Notes: generated from the sequence alone by a model not told the origin. A stretch of DNA of 64,000 nt from Robiginitalea aestuariiviva (GCF_029537735.1 NZ_JARPUQ010000001.1:776696-840695), one strand, 5' to 3'. Counted from the stretch's first letter, positions 2,031 through 48,056 are shown. A program made the numbers and translations.

Positions 2031-2036
2031 GCCCCT

Positions 2037-2789: not shown

Positions 2790-2815
2790 GGAACCCGGCA
2801 CCTAAAGCAAGTACC

Positions 2816-4132: not shown

Positions 4133-4231
4133 ACCAACAGGACTTAAAGAAATCTCAATTAACGTTTTTGTAGGAATTATCGGCAATTTTATCGGGTAGG
4201 TTTGGAAGACTAACATTTCAAACCCAACCGT

Positions 4232-4798
4232 ATGATTCGATTATTACTCCTCCTGGTATTATGGCTACTGGGACATGCTGTGCAGGCGCAAACGCAGCCC
4301 TGGAACGCCAGCGTCCATTACCCGATTTCCATTGGCGATAGTTTCCGGTCATCCAATCAGGGGATCATTGGCCTGGAAATTGGCCGAACGTTCGCCCAAT
4401 GGGGTAAAGCGCGCATTGGCGCCTCCCTGGCTGGCAGCTGGTTTGCCACTACGATCATCAACGACTCAGATCCCGTACAGGAAAACAAGTATCGGGACGC
4501 CTTTTTTTCCGGTAAGTTTTTTGCCGAATGGGACCTGGACCAGGCAAAACGCCTACATCTGCAAACAGGCCTGGGCTGGGGCTATCAAACCAGTCGTTTT
4601 TCACCGGCTTTTTTTGATGCCAATGGACGGTTGCAAGGTGAAGAGACCAGCCATGGTCCGGTGATCAGCCTTGGACTGGGTTACGACCTTACCCCCAACT
4701 GGTATGTACAAACCCAGGTAGAAGGTATGGGCCTGTTCGGCAAGTCGCCTACCAGTTATGTAGGGCTCTTGCGCATTGGGACGGGTTTCCGGTTTTAA
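4232..4798 (+). CDS. Outer-membrane beta-barrel protein (porin-like), hypothetical
   Basis: Signal peptide MIRLLLLLVLWLLGHAVQAQ. Alternating amphipathic strands. C-terminal ...GTGFRF (terminal Phe typical of OM beta-barrels). Confidence 0.55.
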   Translation: MIRLLLLLVLWLLGHAVQAQTQPWNASVHYPISIGDSFRSSNQGIIGLEIGRTFAQWGKARIGASLAGSWFATTIINDSDPVQENKYRDAFFSGKFFAEWDLDQAKRLHLQTGLGWGYQTSRFSPAFFDANGRLQGEETSHGPVISLGLGYDLTPNWYVQTQVEGMGLFGKSPTSYVGLLRIGTGFRF

Positions 4799-4868
4799 GG
4801 GCTCCGACCCGCATAATCCCCTGGAAACAGGCCCTAAAAAACCCTGGCGTTCGGTATCTTTGTACCCT

Positions 4869-6095
4869 ATGAAAACACCCGTGCTGGACGTAGCTAGAAT
4901 CCGAAAAGATTTTCCCATCCTTACCCGAGAGGTAAACGGGCAGCCCTTGCTGTACCTGGACAATGCGGCCACCTCCCAGACCCCGGTACAGGTGATCGAC
5001 ACCATCGTAGATTACTACAGCCGATACAACGCCAACATTCACCGGGGGGTGCATACCCTTTCCCAGGAAGCCACCGATGCCTACGAGCAGGCCCGGGTGA
5101 AGATCCAGAAGCATTTTAATGCAGCCAAAGCCCATGAAATCCTTTTTACCTCGGGCACCACGCACGGGATAAACCTGGTAGCCCAGGGGTTTACCGAATT
5201 CCTGAAACCAGGCGATGAAATCTGGGTCTCCGCCCTGGAACACCACTCCAATATTGTACCCTGGCAGATGCTCTGCCAGCGTACGGGCGCCCGGCTGCGG
5301 GTGATCCCCATGGATGAAAAAGGGGAACTGGTGCTGCAACCCTTCCGAGAAGGCCTGTCCAATAAAACCAAGCTGGTCTTCTGCAACCACGTCTCCAATG
5401 CCCTGGGGACGGTAAACGACATTGAAGCCATCATTGCCGCCGCCCATGAGGTTGGCGCTGCCGTGCTGGTAGACGGGGCCCAGGCCGCCCCCCATATTGC
5501 CGCAGACCTGCAGGCCCTGGATGTGGACTTCTATACCGTTTCCGCACACAAACTCTGCGGCCCTACCGGGGTAGGCATCCTGTATGGGAAAGAAGCCTGG
5601 CTGGAAAAACTCCCGCCCTACCAGGGAGGGGGCGAAATGATCGAAACGGTCACCTTTGATAAAACCACCTATGCCGGGCTGCCCCACAAATTCGAAGCCG
5701 GTACCCCGAATATCTGCGGCGGCATCGCCTTTGGCGCAGCCCTGGACTACCTCAATGCCATTGGCATGGATGCCATTGCGGCCTACGAAGACCAATTGCT
5801 GGCCCATGCCACGGAAGCCCTGATGAAGATCCCGGGTATGAAAATTTATGGGGAATCCGCTCGTAAAACCTCCGTGATCTCCTTTAACCTGGAGGGGATT
5901 CACCCCTACGATGTGGGGACCCTGCTGGATAAAATGGGGATTGCGGTGCGTACAGGCCACCACTGCGCCCAGCCCATCATGGACTTTTACCGCATCCCGG
6001 GCACCGTTCGGGCCAGTTTCAGCTTCTACAATACCCTGGAAGAAGCGGACCGCCTGGCGGCCGGGGTAGAGCGGGCCCGGCAGATGCTGTCCTAG
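4869..6095 (+). CDS. sufS: Cysteine desulfurase SufS (class V aminotransferase)
   Basis: MKTPVLDVARIRKDFPIL...; PLP-lysine motif (SAHKLCGPTG); HHCAQP near the C-terminus. The six-frame ORF begins at 4776, but conserved N-terminus starts at ATG 4869. Confidence 0.9.
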   Translation: MKTPVLDVARIRKDFPILTREVNGQPLLYLDNAATSQTPVQVIDTIVDYYSRYNANIHRGVHTLSQEATDAYEQARVKIQKHFNAAKAHEILFTSGTTHGINLVAQGFTEFLKPGDEIWVSALEHHSNIVPWQMLCQRTGARLRVIPMDEKGELVLQPFREGLSNKTKLVFCNHVSNALGTVNDIEAIIAAAHEVGAAVLVDGAQAAPHIAADLQALDVDFYTVSAHKLCGPTGVGILYGKEAWLEKLPPYQGGGEMIETVTFDKTTYAGLPHKFEAGTPNICGGIAFGAALDYLNAIGMDAIAAYEDQLLAHATEALMKIPGMKIYGESARKTSVISFNLEGIHPYDVGTLLDKMGIAVRTGHHCAQPIMDFYRIPGTVRASFSFYNTLEEADRLAAGVERARQMLS

Positions 6096-6111
6096 CTTCC
6101 CCCTAAACCGG

Positions 6112-6582
6112 TTGAAAGACAGGCTTTATTATCGTATTTTTGCGGCTATGGAACAGCAAGATATCGCCAGCATACAACAGGACATCGTGGAGGAATTCTC
6201 CATGTTTGACGATTGGATGCAGCGCTACGAATACATGATTGAACTGGGCAAGTCCCTGCCGCAGATTGACCCACAGTACAAGACAGACGACCACCTGATT
6301 AAAGGGTGTCAGAGTAAAGTTTGGGTTCATGCGGCCCTGGAGGACGGGCGCCTGGTCTTTACGGCGGATAGCGATGCCATTATCACCAAAGGTATTATCG
6401 GGATCCTGATCCGGGCCTTCAGCCACCAGAAACCGTCTGATATCATTGCCGCCAAAACGGAATTTATCGACGAAATCGGGCTGAAGGAACACCTCTCGCC
6501 CACCCGGGCCAATGGCCTGGTGAGCATGATCAAACAGTTGAAACTCTACGCCGTGGCGTACGAAACCCAGATGGAGTCCTGA
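6112..6582 (+). CDS. sufE: Cysteine desulfuration protein SufE
   Basis: SufE-like sequence with conserved Cys (IKGCQSKVWV). True start may be the ATG at 6148 (MEQQDIAS...). Confidence 0.8.
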   Translation: MKDRLYYRIFAAMEQQDIASIQQDIVEEFSMFDDWMQRYEYMIELGKSLPQIDPQYKTDDHLIKGCQSKVWVHAALEDGRLVFTADSDAIITKGIIGILIRAFSHQKPSDIIAAKTEFIDEIGLKEHLSPTRANGLVSMIKQLKLYAVAYETQMES

Positions 6583-6601
6583 GGCTCCCAACCCAATACA
6601 A

Positions 6602-6931
6602 ATGGAAGAACAAACAGGCATAGATACGCAGGAACTCGGCGAGAAGATCGTCCGGGTCCTCAAGACCATATACGACCCGGAAATCCCGGTGGACATCTAC
6701 GAGCTCGGGCTTATTTATGACGTCTTTGTCAATGAAGCCCGCGACGTGAAGATCCTGATGACCCTGACCTCCCCCAACTGCCCGGTAGCCGAAAGCCTGC
6801 CCGTAGAGGTGGAGGAAAAGGTAAAATCCCTGGACCTGGTCAATGACGCCGAGGTGGAAATCACCTTTGATCCGCCCTGGACCCAGGAATTGATGAGCGA
6901 GGAAGCCAAACTGGAACTCGGCCTCCTCTAA
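6602..6931 (+). CDS. sufT: DUF59/MIP18-family Fe-S assembly protein (SufT-like)
   Basis: 109 aa; DUF59 hallmark PEIPVDIYELGLIY and TLTSPNCPVAE. Confidence 0.75.
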   Translation: MEEQTGIDTQELGEKIVRVLKTIYDPEIPVDIYELGLIYDVFVNEARDVKILMTLTSPNCPVAESLPVEVEEKVKSLDLVNDAEVEITFDPPWTQELMSEEAKLELGLL

Positions 6932-6945
6932 TTTCCGCTGCGCAC

Positions 6946-7452
6946 ATGGAAGGTGAAATTGTAAACCGCGTTGCCCAAAGCTCCCTGAGGACGCTGGACC
7001 TGGAGGAACTCTACCCCCAGGGTCCGCGGCATGGCCTGGACATCAGCCCCTGGCTGGACCAGGGCATAATCCTGAGGGAACAGCCCTTCCGGGAAGCGGT
7101 AAAGGCCCATGACTGGGCAGCCTACCAGGACGCCTTCGTGTACCTGTACTGCAGCTCGGATGCCATTGTGCCTACCTGGGCCTATATGTTGATAAGTACC
7201 CACCTGGCCCCGGTGGCCCGCAAGGTGGTAGTGGGTTCCCGCGAGCTCCTGGAGAGCGTTATTTTCTCGGAAACCCTGGCTGCCATGGACGTGGAGCCCT
7301 TCCGGGACAAGCCGGTTATTATAAAGGGTTGCAGCCATTTGCCCGTGCCGCCTACCGCCTATACACAAGCCGTGGACCGGCTACTGGGGGTGGCCCGTAC
7401 CATACAGTTCGGGGAGGCCTGTTCTTCCGTGCCCCTCTATCGTCGAAAATAG
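6946..7452 (+). CDS. Hypothetical protein, DUF2480-like (recurrent downstream of suf genes in Bacteroidota)
   Basis: 168-aa ORF with coding-like composition directly after sufT. Family assignment from memory of flavobacterial synteny, not verified. Confidence 0.45.
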   Translation: MEGEIVNRVAQSSLRTLDLEELYPQGPRHGLDISPWLDQGIILREQPFREAVKAHDWAAYQDAFVYLYCSSDAIVPTWAYMLISTHLAPVARKVVVGSRELLESVIFSETLAAMDVEPFRDKPVIIKGCSHLPVPPTAYTQAVDRLLGVARTIQFGEACSSVPLYRRK

Positions 7453-7453
7453 T

Positions 7454-7502
7454 GTTGATAACCAGCCGCATATATCAACAATGATTATTTTTGTTGTTGA
7501 TA
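7454..7502. promoter_or_regulatory. Candidate operator: inverted repeat TGTTGATA-N11-TATCAACA plus a third direct copy TTGTTGATAAAC, 20 bp upstream of the ATG at 7522
   Basis: Read directly: agTGTTGATAaccagccgcataTATCAACAatgattatttttgtTGTTGATAaac. Confidence 0.25.
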
Positions 7503-7521
7503 AACTAAACACTATCCCATT

Positions 7522-8448
7522 ATGAAAAAAATCGTTTTGGCCCTTAGCGGGCTGCTGATCACTGCGTTTGCCCATGCGCAAACCGAAGCGGAACTCAAAG
7601 CCACTTTAGGTGAAAAGAAAGATTCCATTGCGGCCATTCAGGGCCGCGCCAACGCCATCCAGGCACAGATTGACGCCCTGCCGGGGTGGAAAATAGGAGC
7701 CTTCGGGGTCATTGGCGGGAGCATTTCCAACTTCAGCAACTGGTACGCCCAGGGCATCCCGAACAACGCCTCCGGGAACATCGGGTTTACCGTAAATGCC
7801 TTTGCCAACCTGCAGGAGGAAAAGTTTTTTTGGAGGAATTCCGGGAACCTGAACCTGAGCTGGGTGAAGCTGGACGACAAGGACGACCCCAATGACGAGT
7901 CCGGCTTCCGGGAAGCGGTGGATGTCTTTAACATCACCTCCCTTTACGGCCGAAAACTGAGCGAGACCTTTGCCATCTCCACCTTAGGGGAATACCGGAC
8001 CACCCTGTTGAACAACTTCAACAATCCCGGGTATTTGGATATCGGGGTCGGGGCCACCTGGACGCCTGTACAAAACCTGGTGGTGGTGATCCACCCGCTC
8101 AACTACAACTTTGTCTTTTCGGATGCCGACGACATCTTCGAGTCTTCCATGGGGGCCAAAGTGGTTGCCGACTACACCCGGCAGCTGGGTGCCATTGCCT
8201 TTAAGTCCAACCTCTCTGCCTTTATGAGCTACAAGAGCAGCAACCTGAGCAACTGGACCTGGATTAATTCCTTCAGCTATACCCTCTGGAAGAAAATCGG
8301 GGTAGGCTTCGATTTTGGCCTGCGCGGCAACAGGCAGGAAGCCCTGAACTACGCCATCAATACCCTGGGCAATGCCGGTGCCACCTTCGACAACACCGAC
8401 AACGAACTGCAGTCTTACTGGACGCTGGGGATGAGCTACAAGTTCTGA
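7522..8448 (+). CDS. Outer-membrane beta-barrel protein, DUF3078-like hypothetical
   Basis: Signal peptide MKKIVLALSGLLITAFAHAQ; ends ...LGMSYKF (C-terminal Phe). Confidence 0.5.
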   Translation: MKKIVLALSGLLITAFAHAQTEAELKATLGEKKDSIAAIQGRANAIQAQIDALPGWKIGAFGVIGGSISNFSNWYAQGIPNNASGNIGFTVNAFANLQEEKFFWRNSGNLNLSWVKLDDKDDPNDESGFREAVDVFNITSLYGRKLSETFAISTLGEYRTTLLNNFNNPGYLDIGVGATWTPVQNLVVVIHPLNYNFVFSDADDIFESSMGAKVVADYTRQLGAIAFKSNLSAFMSYKSSNLSNWTWINSFSYTLWKKIGVGFDFGLRGNRQEALNYAINTLGNAGATFDNTDNELQSYWTLGMSYKF

Positions 8449-8472
8449 GCCTCAGGCCCGCACCATAAAAAA

Positions 8473-8500
8473 AGCCCTGGTTTTTCGCCAGGGCTTTTCT
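8473..8500. terminator. Rho-independent terminator hairpin (AGCCCTGG-ttttcg-CCAGGGCT followed by TTTT)
   Basis: Perfect 8-bp stem flanked by an A-run and a T-run, between convergent genes (7522..8448 + and hflX -). Confidence 0.5.
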
Positions 8501-8688
8501 GTTGGGGTAGGTTCATACCATCTGATTACGTAACATGTCTTGTGGTACGATCCGGAATAAACACTATCACTTAAACACTGCATAAAGATAGCAGGATATC
8601 CGTATTAAACCGCATATTTTCAAGGTAAATTGCCTGATCGAGTGGGAAGTCCGACAAGCCGGGCGTTTTCATCGACGAGATTCGCCCG

Positions 8689-9939
8689 CTACTCCCCCCC
8701 TTCCTGGCTGTAGTCGTCCAGGTTTTCCGGATAGAGGAAATTATTGTAGGGAAAACGGGTCACGTGGATGTCACGTACCGCCCGGTAAACCCGCTTGCGG
8801 AACTCGTCCATATTCTCCTTTTCCAGGGCCGAAATGAAAATAGCGTCCCCGGAGACACGTTGCATCCAGGTGGTCTTCCATTCCTCTATGGAATAGTGGC
8901 GCGAGGTACGCTCGGTTACCAGGTCGTCCTCGTCCAGGGGCTCCGCTTCGTACAGGTCAATTTTGTTGAACACCATCAGGGTATCCTTGTCCGTACACCC
9001 GATTTCCGAAAGGATCTGGTTCACCGAATCGATATGGTCTTCAAAGCTGGGGTGGGAAATGTCCACCACGTGCAGCAACAGGTCCGCCTCCCGCACCTCG
9101 TCCAGGGTACTTTTAAAACTTTCCACCAACTGGGTGGGCAGCTTGCGGATAAACCCCACCGTATCGCTGAGCAGAAAAGGCAGGTTGCCCAACACCACCT
9201 TGCGCACCGTGGTGTCCAGGGTGGCAAAAAGCTTGTTTTCCGCGAAGACCTCGCTTTTGCTGATCACATTCATGAGGGTGGATTTCCCCACGTTGGTATA
9301 TCCCACCAGGGCCACGCGTACCAGGGAGCCGCGGTTCCCCCGCTGGGTCTCCATCTGCTTGTCGATCTTGGTGAGTTTCTTTTTAAGCAGGGCAATGCGG
9401 TCCCGCACAATCCGGCGGTCGGTTTCAATTTCCGTCTCCCCGGGGCCGCGCATCCCGATCCCCCCGCGTTGGCGTTCCAGGTGGGTCCAGAGGCCGGTCA
9501 GGCGGGGCAAGAGGTATTCGTACTGGGCCAGTTCCACCTGGGTGCGCGCATAGCTGGTGGCGGCCCGCTGGGCAAAAATATCCAGGATCAGGCCGGTGCG
9601 GTCCAGGATCTTGCACCGCAATTCCTTTTCGATATTACGTTGCTGCACCGGGGTGAGCTCGTCGTCAAAAATAACCGACCCCACTTCCTGGGCCTTGACG
9701 TACTCCTGTACCTCGGCCAGCTTCCCACTGCCGATAAAGGTTTTAGGGTTGGGCACGTCTATACGCTGCACAAAACGCTTTACCACTTCCCCCCCGGCCG
9801 TATAGGTGAGGAACTCCAGTTCGTCCAGGTATTCGTTAACCTTTTCCTCCGGTTGCTCCCGGGTAATTACCCCGATGAGTACCGACTTTTCGTATGCGAT
9901 TTCCTTCTTCTCGAGCATAATGCGTATGCGACCCTGCAA
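8689..9939 (-). CDS. hflX: GTPase HflX
   Basis: G1 GYTNVGKST, DTVGF, NKID motifs, HflX N-terminal domain. Start may be the internal Met (MLEKK..., 9918). Confidence 0.9.
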   Translation of the reverse strand: MQGRIRIMLEKKEIAYEKSVLIGVITREQPEEKVNEYLDELEFLTYTAGGEVVKRFVQRIDVPNPKTFIGSGKLAEVQEYVKAQEVGSVIFDDELTPVQQRNIEKELRCKILDRTGLILDIFAQRAATSYARTQVELAQYEYLLPRLTGLWTHLERQRGGIGMRGPGETEIETDRRIVRDRIALLKKKLTKIDKQMETQRGNRGSLVRVALVGYTNVGKSTLMNVISKSEVFAENKLFATLDTTVRKVVLGNLPFLLSDTVGFIRKLPTQLVESFKSTLDEVREADLLLHVVDISHPSFEDHIDSVNQILSEIGCTDKDTLMVFNKIDLYEAEPLDEDDLVTERTSRHYSIEEWKTTWMQRVSGDAIFISALEKENMDEFRKRVYRAVRDIHVTRFPYNNFLYPENLDDYSQEGGE

Positions 9940-9998
9940 AACTACGCAATCGCAGCGAAGTCTTTATTGTATCTTTAGAATCCTTACCCGATTTCACC

Positions 9999-37162: not shown

Positions 37163-37286
37163 AGGGGTATCAGTAGGTTATTTACGTATGGTTTTAGCGG
37201 ATTTGGGTCTAGCTATAACGTAAAAATGGGGTGGGGATTGTGTATTGAACAATCACGTCGGTAAGATTAAGTGAATTCTTCTAAAT

Positions 37287-38138
37287 TTGATGAAAATGTA
37301 TAAAATGACTTATTCCGGTCACGAAACCTTTCATTGCAGATTGTTTTGGCTTAAAAAAGGGTACGATTATCTGACTGTTAACGATAATTTTTCGGAAGAG
37401 TCAGGGGTTGATTTAGGTGTAGGTAAGAATATGATTAATTCCATCCGCTATTGGATGAAAGCATTCGGCGCATTGGATGAAGATAACAACCTAAGCGCCT
37501 TATTTCAGCAACTTTTGAATGATGAGGGGTGGGATCCTTACTTGGAACATCAAGGCACTAATTGGTTGCTTCACTATATGATTTGCAAAACGAATAATGC
37601 TAGCATATACCGAGAGATTTTTTCTGAGCTCCGAAAACTAAAACCTGAATTTAGCAAAGAACACTTTGTTTCATTTGCCAAGGGTAATAATTCCCGTCTT
37701 CGTGACAATATACTCGGGAAAGACTTTTCTGTCTTCATTCGCACATACATGGATAAAGGATCTGATGGTGATGGGTTCACTTCAGGTCTGTTAGCCGATC
37801 TAAACTTGGTTCATGAGTTGGGCAAGAACTATTCCGGGGAAATTGTATATCGAATAGAAAATCGATTTCCCGATGATCTCCCGAACAAAATTTTATTATT
37901 CAGCATTTTAGACAATCCCGAATATTCTAATTCTATTGACTTCAATTCACTCTATTCTTCAGTAAATGGGCCTGGAAACATTTTTGCATTGAATGAGAGA
38001 GATCTTGAATCAAAATTGGAAGAATTAGCGGATAATTACCCAAGTATAGTTTACAAAAATGAAGCTGGGGTAAAGGAGTTACAATTCAAACAGCCAATTG
38101 ATAAATGGGAAATACTTGATGAATTTTATGCCGAATAA
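37287..38138 (+). CDS. Hypothetical protein, DUF4007-like (tentative); first gene of island operon
   Basis: 283 aa; N-terminal ...SGHETFHCRLFWLKKGY resembles the DUF4007 N-terminus as I remember it. True start may be ATG 37290 or 37305. A TAAATTTG (-7-like) element sits at 37282-37289. Confidence 0.45.
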   Translation: MMKMYKMTYSGHETFHCRLFWLKKGYDYLTVNDNFSEESGVDLGVGKNMINSIRYWMKAFGALDEDNNLSALFQQLLNDEGWDPYLEHQGTNWLLHYMICKTNNASIYREIFSELRKLKPEFSKEHFVSFAKGNNSRLRDNILGKDFSVFIRTYMDKGSDGDGFTSGLLADLNLVHELGKNYSGEIVYRIENRFPDDLPNKILLFSILDNPEYSNSIDFNSLYSSVNGPGNIFALNERDLESKLEELADNYPSIVYKNEAGVKELQFKQPIDKWEILDEFYAE

Positions 38139-41100
38139 CTATTCCACTTCTGTAAATGTAATTAGAGATGAAAATATTGACTTTAATTACATCCCCACTC
38201 CCAATGCTTCAAAGGCAGCATTAGATATTTTCAATAATATACGCGTAACCCATGCATTTAATATTATTGGGTCTTATGGTACGGGGAAGTCATCCTTTTT
38301 ATGGGCTTTAGAAAAAAGCCTTAAAGGAGAGAAGCCATATTTCGGTTTAAACCGGGGCAATTTTAATGACTCTTTCGGCTTCATTAAACTAATTGGTGAA
38401 TATGCCTCTCTCAGGAGCTCGTTTAATGAATACTTCGGAATTAAGGAGGATTACAAGGGCAATCAACTTCTGTTTGAGAAGATTTTCGAAGAATACGAAA
38501 AACTAAATTCAGGATTGCTTGTCATTATAATTGATGAATTTGGAAAACATTTGGAATACGCTTCTAAGAATTCCCCTGAGGAGGAGATATATTTCATCCA
38601 AAAGTTGGCTGAATTTGTCAATGCCCCAAATAGAAATATAATTCTGATTACCTCCCAACACCAAAATTTTAATGCCTACAGTCAAGGATTAGAAGAAGTC
38701 CTGGCAATTGAATGGAGAAAAATCGAAGGCCGATTTAAACAAATATTGTTCAATGAGCCTATTGAACAGCTGCTTCATTTAGCGTTTAGAGGCATACAAA
38801 AACCAAATCAGAATATTGCCCAATCCGAACTTCTGGATCTATTATCAAGTCACCACTTATTTAAATGTTCTAAGGCTCAATTACAGGAAATTGTTGAAGG
38901 TATTTATCCCTTCGATATCATTTCCATTTATGCATTGGCTATTTGTATTCAGAAATATGGACAAAATGAAAGGTCTCTTTTTAACTTTCTCAATTCAGAC
39001 ACCTTCTTGCAGGCTGAAAAAGGGGCAAAGAGAATTTCATTAGATTTTATCTATGACTATGTCTATTCGGAATTCTATTCATTCATTGTAAGCAAAGTAA
39101 ATCCAGATTATTCTCATTGGGCTATTATAAAGGATTCAATTGAACGAGCGGAATCTCTTGTTGAGGGCGAACAAGACACTGCTCTTAAATTAATCAAATC
39201 AATTGGCTTATTGAATCTACTAGCTACAAAGGGTGCTAGAATCGACCTTTCGTTTTTAAAGTCCTATTATTCTAATATTAAAAATCTGACGTCAGGCATT
39301 AAGGAACTTGAAGCCTATCAGATAATTAGATACAATAAATTCAGTCATTCTTACAAACTATTTGAAGGCACAGATCTGGATATTAACCATGCACTTGCAA
39401 CAGCGCAGAATCAGATAGATGCATCAATTGACATTTATAGCCGACTTGGTGCTCATTTAAACCTTAAGCCAGTAATTGCCAAAGCCATTTCTTTTAACAA
39501 AGGAACTCCTAGGATCTTTGAGTTCATTATATCCAACACTCCTGTTAGTAAGATCCCTATTGGTGAAGTCGACGGTTATATTAATCTAATCCTTAACAAT
39601 GAATTAGATATAACCAATCTTATTCAAAGTTTTGAGGCTAATGATGAGGCAATATTGTTTGGAATACTTAGTAAGTCCCATGAAATAGAACTGTCTCTTA
39701 TTGAAATTGAAAAAGTTGAAACTGTTTTAAAAAACGCCACCAATCAACATGACAAAATTGCGCAACGGGAATTAAAATCCATAAAAGAAAGCCACCTTAA
39801 GTTGTTGGAACACTATGTTACAAAGAGTTTTTACAATGGTAACATCCGTTGGTTTGACAATACAGAAGAATTAACATTTCAAAATATTGGAGCATTAAAT
39901 CAAAGACTTTCTCTTATTTGCCAAAGGGTTTATCACGCCACTCCTACATTCTATCATGAGCTAATAAATAGACATAAAGTTTCCGGTTCCATTTCTACGG
40001 CTCGAAACAACCTATTTAAGGCTCTTGTTCAAAGTTGGGAGGAAGAAAATTTTGGATTTCCGGAAAAAAAATGGCCTGCAGAGAAAACAATCTATTACTC
40101 TCTTTTAAAGCGCACTGGTATTCATCGGAAACAAGAAAATCAATTTGAGCTTGGAAGGCCAGAGGAAGTTTCATTTCATGCGCTATGGGATACGTGCGAT
40201 TCATTTCTCGGTGAATCGGTCCATTATCCCTTGCCTATTACGGAATTGCAGGAGCGATTGAAGACAAAACCATTCAAGTTAAAAGAAGGGTTTATTGATT
40301 TTTGGATCCCCATATTTCTTTTTATTCGTAGAAGTGATTTTGCTTTATATAAAGAGGGTAAATATTTGCCTCAAATTAAAGATAACACCCTGCATTTCTT
40401 AATTCGATCGCCTAAAGATTTCGCCTTAAAGGGCTTTCAACTTAGCGACCTAAGGTTGGAACTTTTTAACCGTTATAGGGCATTCTTACATGGGAAAAAA
40501 GTAAGTCGATTTAATAACAGTTCTTTTATAGAAACAATTCGTCCTTTACTTACCTTTTATCAAGGTCTCCCTGATTATTCCAAGAAAACAAATTCAATTT
40601 CCCTTGAGGTTAAACAATTCAGAGAAGCTATAGTCTCCGCTAAAGACCCGGAGAACACTTTTTTTGTGGACATACCAAACGCATTGGGTTATAATGCTGA
40701 ACTACTAGTAAATGATTCGAAAAATTTTGACGTCTACATTCAAAAACTTCAATCCGCAATTGAAGAACTTCGAACCGCTTTCCAAGCTCTAATCGAGCGT
40801 CTTGAGGCCTGTTTTCAGGAAGAAGTATTCAAGGAGAAGTTGGAATTCCCAGAATATAAATTACGTCTAATTGATCGGTATAGTAACATACGCGATTATA
40901 AACTAAACAATGCTCTAAGGAATTTCATCAATAGGCTAGGTGCGCCAATTGATGATCGTGACTCTTGGATATCTTCACTCTCTTTCGTTGTGCTTAATAA
41001 ACCATTAGAGCAACTTTTAGACACTGAGGAACCATTGTTGAAAGAAAAGTTTATTGAGATCTTTAGGTCATTAGATAATCTTTCCGACCTCTCGAATACT

Positions 41101-41307
41101 AAACCTGTATCGGGTGAACGCTTAGTAAAGCTGGATATCACGACGGAAGAAAATGGCATGTCTAGCCAAATTGTCCGAATTCAAAAAAATGAGTTAGAAG
41201 CCAGAGCTGATCGCATATCAGAAATTGAAGCCTTGCTAGAAAAAGAAAATAGCATGAAAATTCCTATATTGACTGAACTCCTCCGAAAAGCACTTACCAA
41301 TGAGTAA
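38098..41307 (+). CDS. Large P-loop NTPase (1069 aa), uncharacterised
   Basis: Walker A GSYGTGKSS (residues about 59-67), Walker B LLVIIIDEFGK about 100 aa downstream. Long alpha-rich C-terminal region with no recognisable domain. Start probably ATG 38128 (11-nt overlap with the upstream gene). Confidence 0.65.
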   Translation: MINGKYLMNFMPNNYSTSVNVIRDENIDFNYIPTPNASKAALDIFNNIRVTHAFNIIGSYGTGKSSFLWALEKSLKGEKPYFGLNRGNFNDSFGFIKLIGEYASLRSSFNEYFGIKEDYKGNQLLFEKIFEEYEKLNSGLLVIIIDEFGKHLEYASKNSPEEEIYFIQKLAEFVNAPNRNIILITSQHQNFNAYSQGLEEVLAIEWRKIEGRFKQILFNEPIEQLLHLAFRGIQKPNQNIAQSELLDLLSSHHLFKCSKAQLQEIVEGIYPFDIISIYALAICIQKYGQNERSLFNFLNSDTFLQAEKGAKRISLDFIYDYVYSEFYSFIVSKVNPDYSHWAIIKDSIERAESLVEGEQDTALKLIKSIGLLNLLATKGARIDLSFLKSYYSNIKNLTSGIKELEAYQIIRYNKFSHSYKLFEGTDLDINHALATAQNQIDASIDIYSRLGAHLNLKPVIAKAISFNKGTPRIFEFIISNTPVSKIPIGEVDGYINLILNNELDITNLIQSFEANDEAILFGILSKSHEIELSLIEIEKVETVLKNATNQHDKIAQRELKSIKESHLKLLEHYVTKSFYNGNIRWFDNTEELTFQNIGALNQRLSLICQRVYHATPTFYHELINRHKVSGSISTARNNLFKALVQSWEEENFGFPEKKWPAEKTIYYSLLKRTGIHRKQENQFELGRPEEVSFHALWDTCDSFLGESVHYPLPITELQERLKTKPFKLKEGFIDFWIPIFLFIRRSDFALYKEGKYLPQIKDNTLHFLIRSPKDFALKGFQLSDLRLELFNRYRAFLHGKKVSRFNNSSFIETIRPLLTFYQGLPDYSKKTNSISLEVKQFREAIVSAKDPENTFFVDIPNALGYNAELLVNDSKNFDVYIQKLQSAIEELRTAFQALIERLEACFQEEVFKEKLEFPEYKLRLIDRYSNIRDYKLNNALRNFINRLGAPIDDRDSWISSLSFVVLNKPLEQLLDTEEPLLKEKFIEIFRSLDNLSDLSNTKPVSGERLVKLDITTEENGMSSQIVRIQKNELEARADRISEIEALLEKENSMKIPILTELLRKALTNE

Positions 41308-42439
41308 TGTAAGGCATGTACTAGGAATCTCCGGAGGCAAGGATAGCGCAGCCTTAGCGATCTATCTGCACGAGAAATATCCTCAGATAGACTTTGAGTA
41401 TTATTTCTGTGACACAGGGAAAGAATTAGATGAGACTTATCAATTAATTGAAAAGCTGGAGTCTTATTTAGGTAAATCAATCCTAAAACTCGAAAATGAG
41501 GAATTGCATGGATTGAATGAAGACCCCTTCGATTATTACTACAAAATTTTTCGAGGTTACCTCCCCTCATCTCAAGCTCGTTGGTGTACGGCAATGATGA
41601 AGCTAAAACCCTTCGAAAATTTCGTACAAAACGATCCTACTCTTTCGTATGTGGGTATCCGAGGTGACGAGGATCGGGAAGGATATATTTCTAGGCAAGA
41701 AAATATTCAGTCCATCTTCCCATTTCGTAAAAATATTTGGAGCGTAGATGTGCTCAACTTGATTTTTAATCCTAGCAATATTGATCACATTCTCGATTGT
41801 TATAACGAGTATTTAAGCGGTGACAAATTGGATTATGTGCATCATGTTTTTTCTAAACCTATCCCATTTGACCGAAATAGAAGGGCTGAAAAAAATGCAC
41901 TAATAAAAGAAAGTACTGAAAGTCTTCTAAACCTGGGTGTTCCGGAATTCAATCATGTCGTTTTCAAATTCCTTAAATCGACAAACTATAGCGTCGCCTT
42001 ATTGGATGATTTTCCACTCTTAGACAACGAAGATGTTTTGATTCGAGATGATATCTTCAAAATCCTTGAAGAAAGACCAGTGGGTGTCCCGAAATACTAC
42101 GAAAAGATTCCTTTCGAGGTCGATGGTCAAAAAGGAGAATATGCAAGAAGTCGTTCCGGTTGTTATTTCTGTTTCTTTCAGCAAAAAATAGAATGGGTTT
42201 GGCTTTATGAACAACATCCCAATTTGTTTAGGAAAGCCATGCATTATGAAAATGTAGATGAACATTTTACTTGGACATCCGATGAAAGTTTAGAGGAATT
42301 AATCCAACCTGAAAGAATCCGCCAAATTAAGCTGGATCATATTCATAGATCCAATCGTGAAAAGTCAAATAATTCCCCCTTTCTGATTGACATTTTGGAA
42401 GGTACCGAAAGGGATGGGTGTAATACTTGTTTTTTGTAG
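41300..42439 (+). CDS. PP-loop ATP-pyrophosphatase of the PAPS-reductase family (DndC/BrxP-like)
   Basis: SGGKDS PP-loop motif at residues 11-16 (LGISGGKDSAALA). C-terminal Cys cluster (CYFCFF...CNTCF). 8-nt overlap with the upstream ATPase gene. Confidence 0.8.
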   Translation: MSNVRHVLGISGGKDSAALAIYLHEKYPQIDFEYYFCDTGKELDETYQLIEKLESYLGKSILKLENEELHGLNEDPFDYYYKIFRGYLPSSQARWCTAMMKLKPFENFVQNDPTLSYVGIRGDEDREGYISRQENIQSIFPFRKNIWSVDVLNLIFNPSNIDHILDCYNEYLSGDKLDYVHHVFSKPIPFDRNRRAEKNALIKESTESLLNLGVPEFNHVVFKFLKSTNYSVALLDDFPLLDNEDVLIRDDIFKILEERPVGVPKYYEKIPFEVDGQKGEYARSRSGCYFCFFQQKIEWVWLYEQHPNLFRKAMHYENVDEHFTWTSDESLEELIQPERIRQIKLDHIHRSNREKSNNSPFLIDILEGTERDGCNTCFL

Positions 42440-43518
42440 TCATGGACTATCATTTTAAATCAATGAAAATAAGCGATATCGTAGACTTGATAGACAAAGA
42501 CAAAGTCAATCTATCGCCTTATTATCAACGCAAGGATATTTGGACGAAAAATGATCAGGAAGCACTAATTGATTCTATTCTTAACAACTATCCATTACCA
42601 AATTTATTTATTTATAATAATGAAGGGATAATGGAAGTCGTTGATGGTCAACAAAGAATTAGAACTATTTATCGGTTTGTTAAAAACAATATTTCATCTT
42701 CCAGGGGTGAATATTTCAATTCTATTAAAAAAGAAGAATTCCTAAATTATAAGCTTCCTATTATCGAAATATTCAACTTGGATGCCGATGATGATATAGC
42801 TGAATTCTATGTTTTAGTTAATAAAAAAGGTAAGCACTTAACAACACCTGAATTATATAAAGCTGAGTTTCATGACAAAAAATTTATGAAGCTCGCTGAA
42901 GAGATTTTGGATGAGCAATCATTCATTGACCTCAATTTGTTTACAGAGGCAAGCTCAAAAAGAATGAATGATAGAAGCTATGTTGAAGAATTATTGGCCT
43001 ATTTGAAATACGGAATACAGGACAAAAAATCAAATATTGAAACTATATATAAGAACGATATTAGTGACGAGGAGTATGAATTTCTAAAGGACCTTTTTAT
43101 AAAAGTTTTAACCCCGATTCACGCTTTAAATGATGTCCATAATTTGAGCAGGACACGATATAAACAAAAGAATGATTTCTATACTTTGTTCAACTTTGTT
43201 CATCAAAATTTAAATCAGGATCTCAAAACATTCAAAGCACAATATAAAGTCCTCTTGTTAATTTCAGAATATATATCTCCTTCAAACGACGATTGTGAAC
43301 CTCTTAAGAACTATGCTTTGGATTGTGTTTCACAATCCAATTCCAAAAAAGCGCGGGAAAGGAGATTGATGTTTTTCAATTACATTTTAAAGAACAAATC
43401 TGAATCATTAGAGGATAATGAAGTTCTTGGTGAGATTGCCAATTACATTGAAAAAGGACAATTTTTCCCCTTTACCTTAAATAAGGTAGATGAATATTAC
43501 TTGTTAGATATTAAATGA
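42427..43518 (+). CDS. DUF262 (ParB-like/GmrSD N-terminal-like) domain protein
   Basis: DGQQR motif (VVDGQQRIRTI) preceded by an NYPLPNLF segment. 363 aa. Start possibly ATG 42442. Confidence 0.75.
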   Translation: MFFVVMDYHFKSMKISDIVDLIDKDKVNLSPYYQRKDIWTKNDQEALIDSILNNYPLPNLFIYNNEGIMEVVDGQQRIRTIYRFVKNNISSSRGEYFNSIKKEEFLNYKLPIIEIFNLDADDDIAEFYVLVNKKGKHLTTPELYKAEFHDKKFMKLAEEILDEQSFIDLNLFTEASSKRMNDRSYVEELLAYLKYGIQDKKSNIETIYKNDISDEEYEFLKDLFIKVLTPIHALNDVHNLSRTRYKQKNDFYTLFNFVHQNLNQDLKTFKAQYKVLLLISEYISPSNDDCEPLKNYALDCVSQSNSKKARERRLMFFNYILKNKSESLEDNEVLGEIANYIEKGQFFPFTLNKVDEYYLLDIK

Positions 43519-44522
43519 GTATTGTGAAAATTACTTTCCCAAAAACAATAGTCATTAATAAATATGTAATTAGGATAGATCTATCCAAACCTTTCATGAA
43601 TATCGTCAATATAGATGGGGTGGATTATATACCATATTACTTAGATAACCATTCGCCAGGAAATAGAGGAGGTAATTCTCATGTCCTAAAGCTAATTGAA
43701 GCACAATCCTTCGATGAGGATGAAGGCTATCCCGATGAACCTGATTTAGTTATAAAAATCTGCAACTCAGAAAAAGGGAGAAAGCGTGAGGATAACAGGA
43801 GTAAAAGATTTGATATAGAAATTCAGGCTTTACTTGAGTGTTCTGCTAAACGTATACCTAATCTAATGAAAATATATCACAATGGATTGGCGCAAATTGA
43901 AGACAAACGAGGATTAAAGTGCCAGCATAGGTTCTATACTATGCAATATGCGGCATGCGATTTATCTACATATCTTGCTAATAATAAGCTGAGCCTGATT
44001 GATAAAATTCAACTTTTAATTGATATCGCCAATTCACTGAAGAATCTTTGGGAGTTAAAGTATTATCATAGGGATCTCAAGCCTGATAACATTCTTTTTA
44101 TTGACAATGAATGGGTTATTTCAGATTTGGGATTAATCGATAAGAGGGATGAAAATTTTGAAATCGATAAACCAGCAGAATGGATTGGTCCAAGAGGTTG
44201 GATGAGTCCCGAATCAATGAACAAATTTTTGTGTGAAGGGAGGCCTTGGGAAAGTCATCATGACTGTAAGATCGATCATAGTTCAGATCTATATCAGCTT
44301 GGTAAGATTTATTGGTTTATTCTTCAAGGTAACTCACCAGAAGGTGGCATTAGACGTTCAGATTTTCAAATTCAAGATGAAGGGCTTTATCAAATCATTA
44401 GAACTTTGCTGAACAATTCGAAAAATCGAAGAATTTCTGATATAGAAGACTTAATAGGCTTATTAAAAAGGCAATATTTTAGATCTATCGAAAAATATTC
44501 CTTTCAAAAGTCCATAGCTTAG
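43515..44522 (+). CDS. Hanks-type Ser/Thr protein kinase-like protein
   Basis: Glycine-rich loop GNRGGNSHV, beta3 Lys LVIKIC, alphaC Glu EIQAL, catalytic loop YHRDLKPDNILF, DLG (DFG variant), SPE (APE variant). 4-nt overlap with the upstream gene. Confidence 0.75.
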   Translation: MSIVKITFPKTIVINKYVIRIDLSKPFMNIVNIDGVDYIPYYLDNHSPGNRGGNSHVLKLIEAQSFDEDEGYPDEPDLVIKICNSEKGRKREDNRSKRFDIEIQALLECSAKRIPNLMKIYHNGLAQIEDKRGLKCQHRFYTMQYAACDLSTYLANNKLSLIDKIQLLIDIANSLKNLWELKYYHRDLKPDNILFIDNEWVISDLGLIDKRDENFEIDKPAEWIGPRGWMSPESMNKFLCEGRPWESHHDCKIDHSSDLYQLGKIYWFILQGNSPEGGIRRSDFQIQDEGLYQIIRTLLNNSKNRRISDIEDLIGLLKRQYFRSIEKYSFQKSIA

Positions 44523-44527
44523 TAAAG

Positions 44528-45130
44528 ATGAATAGTTTAATCTCATCATTCTCATTTTATGAGATTCTAAGAATATTACTTCCCGGGACATACCTTTATT
44601 TGGGATTAAAGGAGTCAATTATCGGCGAAATAGCTAGAAACTTAAATACTGATCCTGGGATTTACCAAAACACTTTAGTTGAGGTTATTTTAATTTGTGT
44701 GTTTGGATTGTTTATCTATGCTTGGGATTTTCCAAAAATGTTCAAGAAATTTCAAAAAGATCTACCCACAAATAAAATTCAAAAAATTACGGGCATCGAA
44801 TACAAAAAGGTGTTAATTAATTATTATGATTTCTATTCGACATTATCAGAAAGTGAAAAATTAAAGACTGAGAAATATAGTGGATTCTTTCACCTCAGTG
44901 TAAACCTTTCATGCTGTGCCTTTTTTCTTATTTGCCTTGAAATCATTTCAATAATGAAAATGGGTTTAACCAATTTTTTATTGTTGAATATCTTGATTTT
45001 TGTATTATCTATCTCAACGGTATTTTTGATCTATACTAGAAGACTAAAAGTTGCTTTTATTAGGCATTTGGACCAACATTTTGAGTCGAAATACTTTCAA
45101 AAATTACAATCAGGAATTAATAACCCCTAA
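44528..45130 (+). CDS. Four-TM integral membrane protein, hypothetical (possible effector)
   Basis: Four hydrophobic segments (ILRILLPGTYLYLGL, VEVILICVFGLFIYAW, CCAFFLICLEIISIM, LLLNILIFVLSISTVFLIY). Last gene of the plus-strand operon. Confidence 0.5.
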   Translation: MNSLISSFSFYEILRILLPGTYLYLGLKESIIGEIARNLNTDPGIYQNTLVEVILICVFGLFIYAWDFPKMFKKFQKDLPTNKIQKITGIEYKKVLINYYDFYSTLSESEKLKTEKYSGFFHLSVNLSCCAFFLICLEIISIMKMGLTNFLLLNILIFVLSISTVFLIYTRRLKVAFIRHLDQHFESKYFQKLQSGINNP

Positions 45131-47616
45131 TCCTCTAGTCCTTGCATCATCTCTTCCATACCTCCAAAATTCAAAATAAAAGTGGAATAATAATGATCAA
45201 AAAGATCCTTTAGGTATTGTCCTAATTCCACATGCTCTAATTCCTCCTTACCCTCCATTTTCTGGCGAATCTCATACCCGCGATTTTTACTAATTGTATA
45301 TAAGAACAGAGTATGGAAATAAACAGAAGTATAAAACTTCCTATTCGCCAGTTCCAATTGCTCTTGGTTGGGATTTTTATACTTAGAGATAAAGTTTCTT
45401 AGGACAGCCGAATCCATATTTATAAAAATGGATTTCAAAACGTCTCCCTCGGCCTCAGGCACCATGACCGTCTGCCAATCTATTGCCAATCCTGTTGCCT
45501 CTTCTACCGCTTCCCATGCAACTTGAGCTTCAATTTCAGGATTCGGTTCCTTATATGTGAATATTAGTTGTGGTAGGCCTAATGGCTCTTGCCCTTCGTC
45601 CTCCTTGGGTTTCTTTTCCTTAGGCTTTTCTTTGTCTGCAATTTTCACCCAAAAAATTTCATCAAAGTCTTTCCCAGGACTTGTTAGGGTAACCTTCATT
45701 TGAACGGCATCGCCCACTGAAACCTCATCTTTTGGATTCAGGGAGATCTTTATGGTTCCTCTATTTGGACTACTTCGAACGATATTAAATAACTCGGATG
45801 GCTCCTTTGGCTCCCCTGGTTTATTCCCACCTTGAGTCTCATTATTCTGAATATTTAGAATGGCAATCTGAAGATCACCTGGTTCCTCAATACGATCAAA
45901 ATAGTCGTTTTCTACATCCGTAGTAAACTTGATGATTCGCTCCCCTCCCAAGGGGATTTTAGTGATTTCCGTTTTACCATCGTTTCTCGCCTCTACCTTA
46001 AACTGTGATGGGAATCGTTGGGGATTAAATGGCACTACTTCTTTCTCGTGTTTAGAAGGCCTTTTATTCTGTTTTGATTTCTTATCCTTTTCGAGATCTA
46101 ATTTGAATGTCTGATTAAGTAATTTTAAAAGATCAGAATCCAATGGTAAATCCTTGGTGAAGCTTTTTAATAATTCCCCTGTGTTTGAAGAGGTATCTAT
46201 GTTTACCGCTTCCTTCCTTCTCTTTTCAATTTCAGCCAGCCGCCCATCTTTTTTACTTAGTTGGGTTGCCAAATACTGTCTGAGATATTGTGTTTCATCG
46301 CCGTCCTTAAGGCGATCCCTTGAGGCCATAAAGAGTTCTTTGCGGAACTCATACTTCATCTCTGTACAATCCACATGAATAAGCAAATGGTTCTTAAGGA
46401 GATTTAGTTTTAAAGACCTTGTGATGAACTCAGAGGTGTAATTTCCGTGAACCTGTCCGTTTAATGAAAACATTACAGACATATAGTTCTTGAAGTATCT
46501 GTTCTGAATAACTTCCTTGGAACGTTTTAAATCAAAGTCTCGAATTTTCGTTTTAAATACGAAACAGGAAACTTTCATCTTCCCTATTGTATCGTCTTCA
46601 AATATCTCCGAAAATTTGTCGTCTAAATATTCTGATTCTTCGCTGGTTAACCTTCGTTTAAGTCCATACAAATCTTGAACCAATACCTTGTTATTAGGGT
46701 ACCTTTCTGCAGTATCTTTTGTAAGGATTGGGAGTGCAGGACTGAACAAAAACTCATTTATGCTTTGATTCAGGTCTTGCGCAAAACCAGAATACCCCTT
46801 AGGAAACTGATACGAATACATCTTAATAATGGTTCCTGTCTGGAATAACCTGTCTTCCAATCCGAGATCCAATTGAGTAATTGGAAAAGAAGGAATTTTA
46901 CCATCAATTAATAGATACTCATACCAAGTTTCCTTTGCATGGTCAGATTCCCTTTTGGGGTGTTCCCGAATAAGGGTAAAACCAAAATCACCATCATTAG
47001 TGAATCGCTTTGAGGCAATTAACTGATACCGTTTTTTCCCACAAAAAACAATAGCACCACTTCCTCCCATATTGTACTTACCCTGAACAAAATGTACATC
47101 ATTCTTATTACCTCTTAGTAAGGACAGAAAGGTGTTTTCAAAATCGGCCGGATGTTGACCTTCGCCATTATCGTAGACCAAAACCGAGGTTGGATATTGG
47201 CTTCTTTGAGTACGTGGACCCTTTCCATCGGCGATGATTTGAATATCCTGTGCCTGTTTCCGTCTAAAGCTTTGAAGATCCCAATTATTATCAGGAAAAA
47301 ATAATTCGATTGCCTCGTCCATTGATTTAGGAGCATTCTCGGAGGCTGGATCTATTTTCTCTTCTTGACATCTTTTGGTCAGAAGTGCATCAATAGAATT
47401 GGTAACTTTCTCAATTAGAGCCGCTACTGGATTGGATTGTTGGTTCTTTACAACACCATAATTGCTTTTATTGTTGCCGAGAGGTTTCCAATTGGAATCT
47501 TCGAAAATTTTTGGTGATTCATCAATAATGGCAACGAGATCCTCCTCATCTTTTGCGTGGAAAAGTTGGAAAAAGATCTTTTCCGTTTCTATCTTTTTCA
47601 TTCGCGCTGAATACAA
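45127..47616 (-). CDS. GHKL-superfamily (Bergerat-fold) ATPase, 829 aa
   Basis: N-box AALIEKVTNSIDALL (ExxxNxxDA), G1 box LVYDNGEGQ (DxGxG), G2 box GKYNMGGSGA. Long C-terminal region uncharacterised. Convergent with the plus-strand operon (4-nt overlap of stops). Confidence 0.7.
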   Translation of the reverse strand: MYSARMKKIETEKIFFQLFHAKDEEDLVAIIDESPKIFEDSNWKPLGNNKSNYGVVKNQQSNPVAALIEKVTNSIDALLTKRCQEEKIDPASENAPKSMDEAIELFFPDNNWDLQSFRRKQAQDIQIIADGKGPRTQRSQYPTSVLVYDNGEGQHPADFENTFLSLLRGNKNDVHFVQGKYNMGGSGAIVFCGKKRYQLIASKRFTNDGDFGFTLIREHPKRESDHAKETWYEYLLIDGKIPSFPITQLDLGLEDRLFQTGTIIKMYSYQFPKGYSGFAQDLNQSINEFLFSPALPILTKDTAERYPNNKVLVQDLYGLKRRLTSEESEYLDDKFSEIFEDDTIGKMKVSCFVFKTKIRDFDLKRSKEVIQNRYFKNYMSVMFSLNGQVHGNYTSEFITRSLKLNLLKNHLLIHVDCTEMKYEFRKELFMASRDRLKDGDETQYLRQYLATQLSKKDGRLAEIEKRRKEAVNIDTSSNTGELLKSFTKDLPLDSDLLKLLNQTFKLDLEKDKKSKQNKRPSKHEKEVVPFNPQRFPSQFKVEARNDGKTEITKIPLGGERIIKFTTDVENDYFDRIEEPGDLQIAILNIQNNETQGGNKPGEPKEPSELFNIVRSSPNRGTIKISLNPKDEVSVGDAVQMKVTLTSPGKDFDEIFWVKIADKEKPKEKKPKEDEGQEPLGLPQLIFTYKEPNPEIEAQVAWEAVEEATGLAIDWQTVMVPEAEGDVLKSIFINMDSAVLRNFISKYKNPNQEQLELANRKFYTSVYFHTLFLYTISKNRGYEIRQKMEGKEELEHVELGQYLKDLFDHYYSTFILNFGGMEEMMQGLED

Positions 47617-47666
47617 TTATTAAACTTGCTGCTCTTACTTCTGACGCTTAACTATTTGCTTTAATT

Positions 47667-47888
47667 CTATTGTTTTATGAAAATATCTAATAGCTCTCTG
47701 AGCTCTTTCGCCTTCTGTTTGTCGAACTGAATATTCTGTTTTGACCCTCGCCCCCTTGTTAAATCGCCCATAGCATAAGTTCTTATTTGCATCCAATGTT
47801 TTTCGATAATAACATCCCCTATCACACTCCCTTGGCGAATACTAATGTTATCCTCTGTTTCTTTGATAATTCTTCCTAAAACTGCCAT
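47667..47888 (-). CDS. Small hypothetical protein upstream of the GHKL ATPase gene
   Basis: 73-aa ORF starting MAVLGRIIKETEDN...; AT-rich codon usage like the rest of the island; no recognisable motif. Confidence 0.3.
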   Translation of the reverse strand: MAVLGRIIKETEDNISIRQGSVIGDVIIEKHWMQIRTYAMGDLTRGRGSKQNIQFDKQKAKELRELLDIFIKQ

Positions 47889-48056
47889 GATTTTATTTTC
47901 AAATAGTATGATATCTAGAATAACATTGTGCCGGATTCGAAATAAACCCCGCCCATAATTGAACATGGATAATAGCCTAATTCGTAAAAATCCCTCTCAC
48001 ATCTCATGAGTTAGAGCTGAGTTCACTCCTGGATTCGATATGAAGTTAGCTTCGGC

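Follow-up and report, generated by a model that had tools for sequence, protein, structure and literature searches.

A stretch of 64,000 nt from the genome of Robiginitalea aestuariiviva (GCF_029537735.1, NZ_JARPUQ010000001.1:776696-840695; this whole stretch is termed the window, and positions are counted from its first letter) contains a low-GC island in which three overlapping genes on the same strand, judged by their sequences, are sspB, sspC and sspD, coding for full-length homologues of the Ssp phosphorothioate (PT) DNA-modification module, a known machinery that puts sulfur in place of an oxygen in the DNA backbone and thereby marks the DNA of the cell as distinct from that of a virus. 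The best explanation of the locus, for which we estimate a probability of roughly 85%, is an sspBCD PT core that is combined with a putative DUF262 sensor, a putative swappable effector (a Ser/Thr kinase in this strain) and a GHKL ATPase as partner. A previous reading of the sequence alone (the sequence-only reading) had proposed a DNA sulfur-modification module at 37287-42439, composed of a DUF4007 protein, a large ATPase and a DndC/BrxP-like PP-loop enzyme which obtains its sulfur from a desulfurase encoded elsewhere, and this proposal is supported by the matches to Ssp profiles described below. The trio is real, but the unit extends past 42439 and includes, conserved along with the trio, two or more further co-transcribed genes and a convergent gene for a GHKL ATPase. 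The trio itself is ordinary, namely another example of a well-described PT module in the Bacteroidota, and the partner genes plausibly constitute a PT-linked sensor/effector set.

Identity of the sspBCD trio

The three open reading frames (ORFs) are the following (lengths in amino acids, aa).

37287..38138, + strand: sspB, DUF4007 protein of 283 aa, predicted DNA-binding/nicking subunit (Pfam, PADLOC, PDB match)
38098..41307, + strand: sspC, BrxC/PglY-like P-loop ATPase of 1069 aa (PADLOC, motifs)
41300..42439, + strand: sspD, predicted PP-loop ATP pyrophosphatase of 379 aa with PAPS-reductase fold, long form (PADLOC, Pfam, alignment)

The first gene had been likened to DUF4007, and its product indeed matched the Pfam profile of this family with an E-value of 1e-62 (212 bits, as compared to a cutoff of 27). 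It matched the PADLOC SspB profile over the full length (6.4e-88), and a PDB search retrieved the crystallised SspB nickase (6juf/6lb9, 1.8e-21). For the product of the second gene, the PADLOC SspC profile gave an E-value of 0 (1166 bits), with residues 22-1035 aligned to profile positions 1-1029 of 1039; the approximately 800 aa of this ATPase which had been regarded as unassigned are thereby spanned completely. Its match to the PADLOC BrxC profile was weaker (1.2e-57), and no solved structural relative was found by sequence in the PDB search. Both the Walker A motif GSYGTGKSS (aa 58-66, nt 38269-38295) and the Walker B motif IIIDEFGK (aa 143-150, nt 38524-38547) are intact.

The product of the third gene matched the PADLOC SspD profile (2.9e-92) and Pfam PAPS_reduct (3.5e-9; 37.4 bits, cutoff 22.5), and the SspD-family profile finds MnmA thiouridylases in the PDB. 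SspD contains the motifs SGGKDS (aa 11-16, nt 41330-41347), CYFCFF (aa 288-293) and CNTCF (aa 374-378); like the two Walker motifs of SspC, they had all been quoted in the sequence-only reading, and all of them are present. In an alignment of SspD homologues, SGGKDS, C96 (in RWCT), C288 and C291 (in SGCYFCFFQ) and C377 are invariant, and the four cysteines would fit a sulfur- or cluster-binding site. The protein represents a long form of SspD, in which about 100 residues (aa ~146-253) are inserted that the 269-aa versions do not have; the insertion matches the extra alpha+beta domain described for some SspD and BrxP proteins (PMC12839542). The PP-loop enzyme had been considered DndC-type, of which the kinship to sulfur-inserting enzymes stands; as DndC proper the protein was rejected, its score with the TIGR03183 equivalog model being 20.7 bits at a cutoff of 290.4. 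The pairing of a DUF4007 protein with a PAPS-reductase-family protein, which had been thought to lack a characterised function, is that of SspB and SspD in SspABCD (PMC8092258, PMC7188994), and the two domains are fused in BrxP of BREX type 4 (PMC12914056).

As noted before, the genes of the trio overlap. The overlap of sspC and sspD amounts to 8 nt (41300-41307), and that of sspB and sspC depends on the start codon chosen, being 11 nt for the ATG at 38128, 20 nt for the ATG at 38119, and 41 nt for the TTG at 38098. Since sspC homologues begin near the sequence M..NYSPSVNIVRD, which fits a start at 38119 or 38128, one of these two ATG codons is probably the true start of sspC; for sspB, the starts of homologues point to an ATG within 37290-37305 as the probable start codon. 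The order B-C-D is kept in 18 of 18 related genomic loci and in 53 metagenomic loci, so the coupling of the trio is not due to chance. All features of an sspBCD module which are accessible from sequence (SspB, SspC, SspD, a single operon) were found, except for a dedicated SspA.

Partner genes and conservation of the arrangement

Downstream of the trio, the island comprises the following features.

42442..43518, + strand: ParB/Srx-fold DUF262 nucleoside triphosphatase (NTPase), 358 aa (Pfam, PADLOC, AlphaFold2 model)
43515..44522, + strand: Hanks-type Ser/Thr protein kinase, 335 aa (Pfam, PADLOC, alignment)
44528..45130, + strand: predicted membrane protein, 200 aa, last gene of the operon (no Pfam match)
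45127..47616, - strand: predicted GHKL ATPase, 829 aa, convergent (motifs, AlphaFold2/Foldseek)
47667..47966, - strand: orf99, ORF of 99 aa upstream of the GHKL gene (no family match)
37170..48050, no strand: low-GC genomic island (composition)

The operon consists of sspB-sspC-sspD and the genes of the DUF262 protein, the Ser/Thr kinase and the membrane protein, with almost no spacing after sspD: the DUF262 gene starts 3 nt past the sspD stop codon and shares 4 nt (ATGA) with the kinase gene. The convergent GHKL gene overlaps the ssp operon by 4 nt with its 3' end. The island (~37170-48050, 10.9 kb) has a GC content of 35.5%, as compared to 56.9% in the left and 59.8% in the right flank; searches revealed no tRNA gene, no integrase gene and no convincing direct repeats on its two sides. 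Two of the island products are 100% identical to proteins of Robiginitalea sp. M366, which belongs to the Flavobacteriaceae. Counts of promoter and terminator consensus sequences were at chance level and were given no weight.

The start of the DUF262 gene (ATG at 42442) is confirmed by a 100% identical NCBI protein. The gene product matched Pfam GmrSD_N (3.2e-22), and its best profile match, covering nearly the full length, was PADLOC NsnA (8.3e-27). It contains YQR (42523-42531), DGQQR (42643-42657) and FxxxN (42805-42822), that is, intact versions of the QR, DGQQR and FxxxN motifs (as defined in PMC12137116) of NTPases of the GmrSD/SspE type. The AlphaFold2 model, with a predicted local distance difference test (pLDDT) value of 89, shows a ParB/Srx-fold head and a helical body. 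CDP-bound ParB (6sdk) was the top fold match (5e-4) and BrxU a weak one; in the sequence and profile searches of the PDB, the N-terminus of BrxU was the sole match. No nuclease domain was recognised by Pfam, in the AlphaFold2 model, or in the fold search. We consider the protein NsnA-like and a probable analogue of the N-terminal domain of SspE and of DndB. The kinase encoded by the adjacent gene matched Pfam Pkinase (1e-15) as well as the PADLOC models mad6, PD-T4-6 and Stk2, and its catalytic residues K81, E102, HRD185-187, N192, DLG204-206 and SPE231-233 are invariant in an alignment of homologues.

A genomic survey with the DUF262 protein as query and one genome per species yielded 18 loci from Bacteroidota, Ignavibacteria, Acidobacteriota, Verrucomicrobiota and Victivallales. 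The genes sspB-sspC-sspD are located directly upstream of the DUF262 gene in all 18 of them, and the kinase gene directly downstream in 17; in the remaining locus, the sequence ends too early. Beyond the kinase gene, the convergent GHKL gene occurs in 8 of the 18 loci as well as in the window, and canonical sspFGH genes are found in four (PADLOC E-values of 1e-203, 8e-195, and 0). These four loci, from Acidobacteriota and Verrucomicrobiota (numbered L013, L014, L016 and L018 in our survey), read sspB-C-D-DUF262-kinase-sspF-G-H in one direction, and their SspD is the short 269-aa version without the insertion of about 100 aa. A PbeA/PbeC-like helicase-ATPase cassette is present in three loci (L001, L008, and L007 from Prevotella corporis, 4747-9992); it codes for a PbeA-like helicase (PADLOC 4e-296), a PbeC-like ABC ATPase and a 175-aa protein, and in L007 it sits between sspD and the DUF262 gene.

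From its motifs and structural model, the 829-aa protein is predicted to be a member of the GHKL ATPase superfamily, with the Bergerat fold as in Hsp90, MORC and GyrB. It contains the sequences EKVTNSIDA (47386-47412), YDNGEGQ (47155-47175) and GKYNMGGSG (47056-47082), and Bergerat motifs I-III (ExxxNxxD, DxGxG and the glycine-rich lid) are invariant among its homologues. The Pfam match to HATPase_c_3 was weak (1.6e-3), and sequence and profile searches of the PDB gave no match. The AlphaFold2 model, which is of moderate quality (pLDDT 64.7), shows a GHKL and a transducer domain, then Ig-like beta-sandwiches, and a helical C-terminus. Foldseek placed the ATPase of SMCHD1 at the top (1.2e-8), followed by topoisomerase IV ParE, HtpG and TRAP1, with E-values in the range of 1e-8 to 1e-6. 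More than 3000 homologues of the protein were found, none of which carries a name.

A search with the GHKL profile provided 80 metagenomic loci, and 54 of these have enough flanking sequence to judge the neighbourhood; the homologues on which this count of linkage is based are 53-78% identical. In 53 of these 54 informative loci, sspC/D are located at a distance of 10 kb or less; L037 is the only GHKL locus that extends over 10 kb on both sides without an ssp gene. The GHKL gene is also found next to ssp genes in Kordia, in Psychroflexus, in a metagenome-assembled genome of the Balneolales, on a plasmid of Hymenobacter and, with a protein of 46% identity, on one of the alphaproteobacterium Ensifer adhaerens. 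Distant homologues (25-29% identity) from Pontibacillus (L107) and from the Halogeometricum plasmid pHBOR02 (L108, 1789-5963) are not linked to ssp genes; the haloarchaeal one is divergent from a gene of a site-specific DNA methyltransferase. In 11 loci (L009, L012, L051, L072, L074, L080, L086, L093, L095, L096 and L100), sspA directly precedes the GHKL gene on its strand, at a distance of -10 to +62 nt, which points to an operon of these two genes that is convergent with sspBCD.

Between sspD and the GHKL gene, the gene content varies from locus to locus. The metagenomic loci contain the following cassettes at this site.

DUF262 and Ser/Thr kinase: 17 metagenomic loci
DUF262 and SIR2_2 protein (Pfam 2.8e-25): 5 metagenomic loci (L034, L045, L058, L074, L084) and the Hymenobacter plasmid
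DndB-family protein (~410 aa) and unannotated protein of ~175 aa: 12 metagenomic loci
Rarer cassettes: remaining metagenomic loci

On the Hymenobacter plasmid (L109, NZ_CP110137, 13448-15326), the SIR2_2 gene occupies the kinase slot, and cassettes with the DndB-family gene are found, among others, at L019 (12497-14263) and L022 (12540-14295). The replacement of one gene by another suggests that the slot after the DUF262 gene holds an interchangeable effector.

The membership of the two remaining island genes in the unit is doubtful. The 200-aa multi-pass membrane protein had no Pfam match, showed a weak match to PADLOC Csx27 (1.8e-4), and gave no tblastn match in any related locus, so it appears to be specific to this island. 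For orf99, no family match was obtained in Pfam, PADLOC or NCBIfam; the one homologue found (64% identity) is encoded beside sspB in L025, and orf99 holds the position which in some related loci is occupied by sspA. In a few loci (L020, 9000-9767; L022, 9026-9988; L038, L044 and L053), a gene coding for an HNH_2 endonuclease (PF13391) is located next to or upstream of the GHKL gene. That orf99 is a remnant of such a gene was tested and rejected, as the window does not contain any HNH_2 remnant.

Sulfur supply, proposed function and alternatives

None of the eight island proteins matched a cysteine desulfurase (aminotransferase class V) or SspA in the Pfam and PADLOC searches. In the window, a single cysteine desulfurase was seen, namely a SufS-type class-V aminotransferase encoded at 4776-6095 within a sufBCDS cluster (90-6095), about 31 kb upstream of the trio, in agreement with the earlier observation that the island lacks a desulfurase gene and that a chromosomal sufS lies some 32 kb away. 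Among the related loci, sspA adjoins the cluster in only some (4 of the 18 genomic ones). The set sspBCD is accepted as the minimal one for PT synthesis, with sspA often being replaced by a housekeeping desulfurase (PMC12914056); sspBCD clusters without sspA have been documented, and IscS can serve such clusters (PMC8092258, PMC12914056). Because the island is devoid of sspA, sulfur would have to be provided by a chromosomal desulfurase, and sufS is the only candidate visible in the window.

SspD has been described as an ATP pyrophosphatase that binds SspA and receives persulfide sulfur from it, and SspB as a nickase (PMC7188994); the Ssp system writes single-strand PT (PMC7188994, PMC8092258). 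By analogy to these characterised homologues, the cysteine desulfurase would form a persulfide, SspD as a PP-loop ATP pyrophosphatase with four conserved cysteines would take up and activate the sulfur, SspB, a DUF4007 protein with multiple winged helix-turn-helix domains, would bind and nick the target strand, and the ATPase SspC would provide the energy. If the genes are active, the expected product is a single-strand RP phosphorothioate, possibly at sites of the C(ps)CA type known from the systems studied. The PT mark would be read by the co-transcribed ParB-like DUF262 NTPase, which is similar to the N-terminal, PT-sensing domain of SspE although it has no nuclease, and this protein is proposed to control the swappable effector, i.e., the Ser/Thr kinase in the window and SIR2 proteins in other loci. 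A ParB-family protein combined with a swappable kinase or SIR2 protein typically represents a sensor and its abortive-infection effector, and we therefore infer that the DUF262-effector pair takes the part of the nuclease which is fused to the sensor in SspE. The GHKL ATPase would accompany this Ssp subtype as an additional, nearly obligate partner.

Several observations weigh against a PT core with sensor, effector and GHKL partner. In Vibrio cyclitrophicus FF75, mutation of sspA abolished PT despite the presence of a chromosomal iscS (PMC7188994), hence the missing sspA can mean that the module of the island is inactive. Moreover, the sole desulfurase seen in the window, SufS, belongs to type II, and no report of a SufS serving Ssp was found in the literature consulted; PT may be absent from the DNA of this organism. 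None of the PADLOC SspE models matched the DUF262 protein, and in the fold search SspE (6jiv) gave a weak match (E=0.09). In the GHKL protein, no nuclease domain is recognisable, and no PADLOC model matched; the translational coupling of its gene to sspA in 11 loci would fit a function in either modification or defence. Finally, the occurrence of sspFGH after the kinase gene in four loci means that the DUF262-kinase pair may be regulatory, as DndB is, and not the restriction arm.

The last point leads to an alternative we consider unlikely yet worth serious attention, in which the DUF262 NTPase and the kinase are DndB-like regulators of PT synthesis, and restriction is exerted by the GHKL protein or by nothing. 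DndB limits the expression of dnd genes and senses ATP, SspE and DndB have been described as equivalents within the ParB superfamily (PMC10853773), and a protein of the Pfam DndB family fills the same slot in other loci; in the four loci mentioned, restriction could be supplied by SspFGH. However, the exchange of the kinase for a SIR2_2 protein is typical of interchangeable abortive-infection effectors rather than of regulators, and the NTPase motifs characteristic of SspE/GmrSD sensors are intact in the DUF262 protein.

According to another explanation, SspBCD is an orphan epigenetic system whose PT serves purposes other than defence, such as redox buffering or gene regulation, while the DUF262, kinase and GHKL genes are independent defence genes that share the island. 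Wang et al. (PMC8092258) reported that 83.9% of sspBCD clusters are without a known restriction partner and proposed that partners await discovery; other roles have been proposed for solitary PT systems in the same study, and the kinase resembles the single-gene defences PD-T4-6 and Stk2. This explanation appears distinctly improbable in view of the 3-nt gap between sspD and the DUF262 gene, the 4-nt overlap of the latter with the kinase gene, and the recurrence of the arrangement in 18 of 18 loci over at least five bacterial phyla. Chance co-location within defence islands would also not be as consistent as the proximity of the GHKL gene to ssp genes, which holds for 53 of the 54 informative loci.

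Within the preferred explanation of a PT core with sensor, effector and GHKL partner, the locus might represent an undescribed Ssp subtype, in which PT is read without SspE or SspFGH and in which sspBCD and the GHKL gene form a frame around a variable cassette of a ParB-family NTPase without nuclease (DUF262 or DndB-type) and an interchangeable effector, namely the Ser/Thr kinase in the window and SIR2 or other small proteins elsewhere. We put this forward tentatively, with chances somewhat short of even. No description of an association of sspBCD with the GHKL gene, or with DUF262 and kinase genes, was found in the literature searched, the coverage of which was incomplete, and the apparent novelty is suggestive only. 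If the proposal is true, part of the approximately 84% "orphan" sspBCD clusters would gain a restriction or abortive-infection arm that acts via protein phosphorylation or NAD depletion and not via DNA cleavage, and Ssp would have a new core component in the GHKL protein. The window and its approximately 70 relatives offer testable candidates for the missing partners of sspBCD, namely the GHKL ATPase, and the ParB-like NTPase together with a kinase or SIR2 protein; if these are confirmed, PT-based immunity would include effector arms other than nucleases.

Comparison with known systems

The assignment of the trio to BREX type 4 or Dnd instead of Ssp is highly improbable. There are weak matches to the PADLOC models of BrxP (2.4e-10 for SspD and 9.9e-5 for SspB) and DndC (9.3e-7) besides that to BrxC given above, and BrxP is in effect an SspD-SspB fusion, with BrxC being a homologue of SspC (PMC12914056). 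However, the Ssp profiles score far higher, DUF4007 and PAPS-reductase are encoded by separate genes, and PglZ, BrxL, DndD and DndE had no match among the eight island proteins in Pfam, PADLOC and NCBIfam. A sulfate-assimilation (CysH-type) PAPS reductase, for which only the generic Pfam PAPS_reduct match could be adduced, can practically be dismissed, as there are no cys genes nearby, the neighbours code for DUF4007, an SspC-type ATPase, DUF262 and a kinase, there was no NCBIfam CysH match, and all homologous loci show a defence-type context and none of the cysH-like setting which the sequence-only reading had named as evidence against a modification module.

BREX type 4 (BrxP-BrxC-PglZ-BrxL; PMC12914056, PMC12839542) likewise combines a PAPS-reductase, DUF4007 and a BrxC-like ATPase for PT, and the long-form insertion and cysteine-rich tail of SspD resemble BrxP and a subset of SspD proteins; in the island, PAPS-reductase and DUF4007 are not fused, and PglZ and BrxL are absent. 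DndABCDE with DndB follows the same relay logic, from a desulfurase via a PP-loop enzyme with cysteine ligands to an ATPase, and a ParB-superfamily protein is encoded along with the modification genes. It differs in that the island has no DndD or DndE, that the DndC model is far under its threshold, and that Ssp forms single-strand PT by means of a nickase.

Single components of the unit have counterparts in other defence systems. The DUF262 protein is NsnA-like, but membership in the Menshen system was rejected because this match stands alone, neither NsnB nor NsnC being found in the island by PADLOC. GHKL ATPases are known partners of restriction-modification systems, and GHKL defence proteins include paraMORC (PMC2292703) and VcSduA (PMC12137116). 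Kinases and SIR2 proteins are known interchangeable defence effectors, as exemplified by Stk2, PD-T4-6 and mad6 of MADS. None of NsnA of Menshen, paraMORC, VcSduA, Stk2, PD-T4-6 and mad6 is known to be tied to sspBCD.

A complete Ssp defence system as described so far is not encoded by the island, since PADLOC did not detect SspE, SspF, SspG or SspH among its proteins. With SspABCD-SspE of V. cyclitrophicus FF75, Escherichia coli 3234/A and Streptomyces (Xiong et al. 2020, cited in PMC7188994 and PMC9646914), the locus shares the order and tight coupling of sspBCD as well as the position of the DUF262 gene, which codes for a ParB-like protein with DGQQR motif and, like sspE, follows right after sspD. 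In contrast to that system, the island has no sspA, the 358-aa DUF262 protein is devoid of the DUF1524/His-Me nuclease half of SspE, and a separate kinase gene follows. The IscS-SspBCD-SspFGH system of Vibrio anguillarum FF-93 (PMC8092258) likewise has sspBCD without sspA and uses a housekeeping desulfurase; the window differs from it by lacking sspF, sspG and sspH and by carrying the gene of the 829-aa GHKL ATPase at the convergent downstream position.

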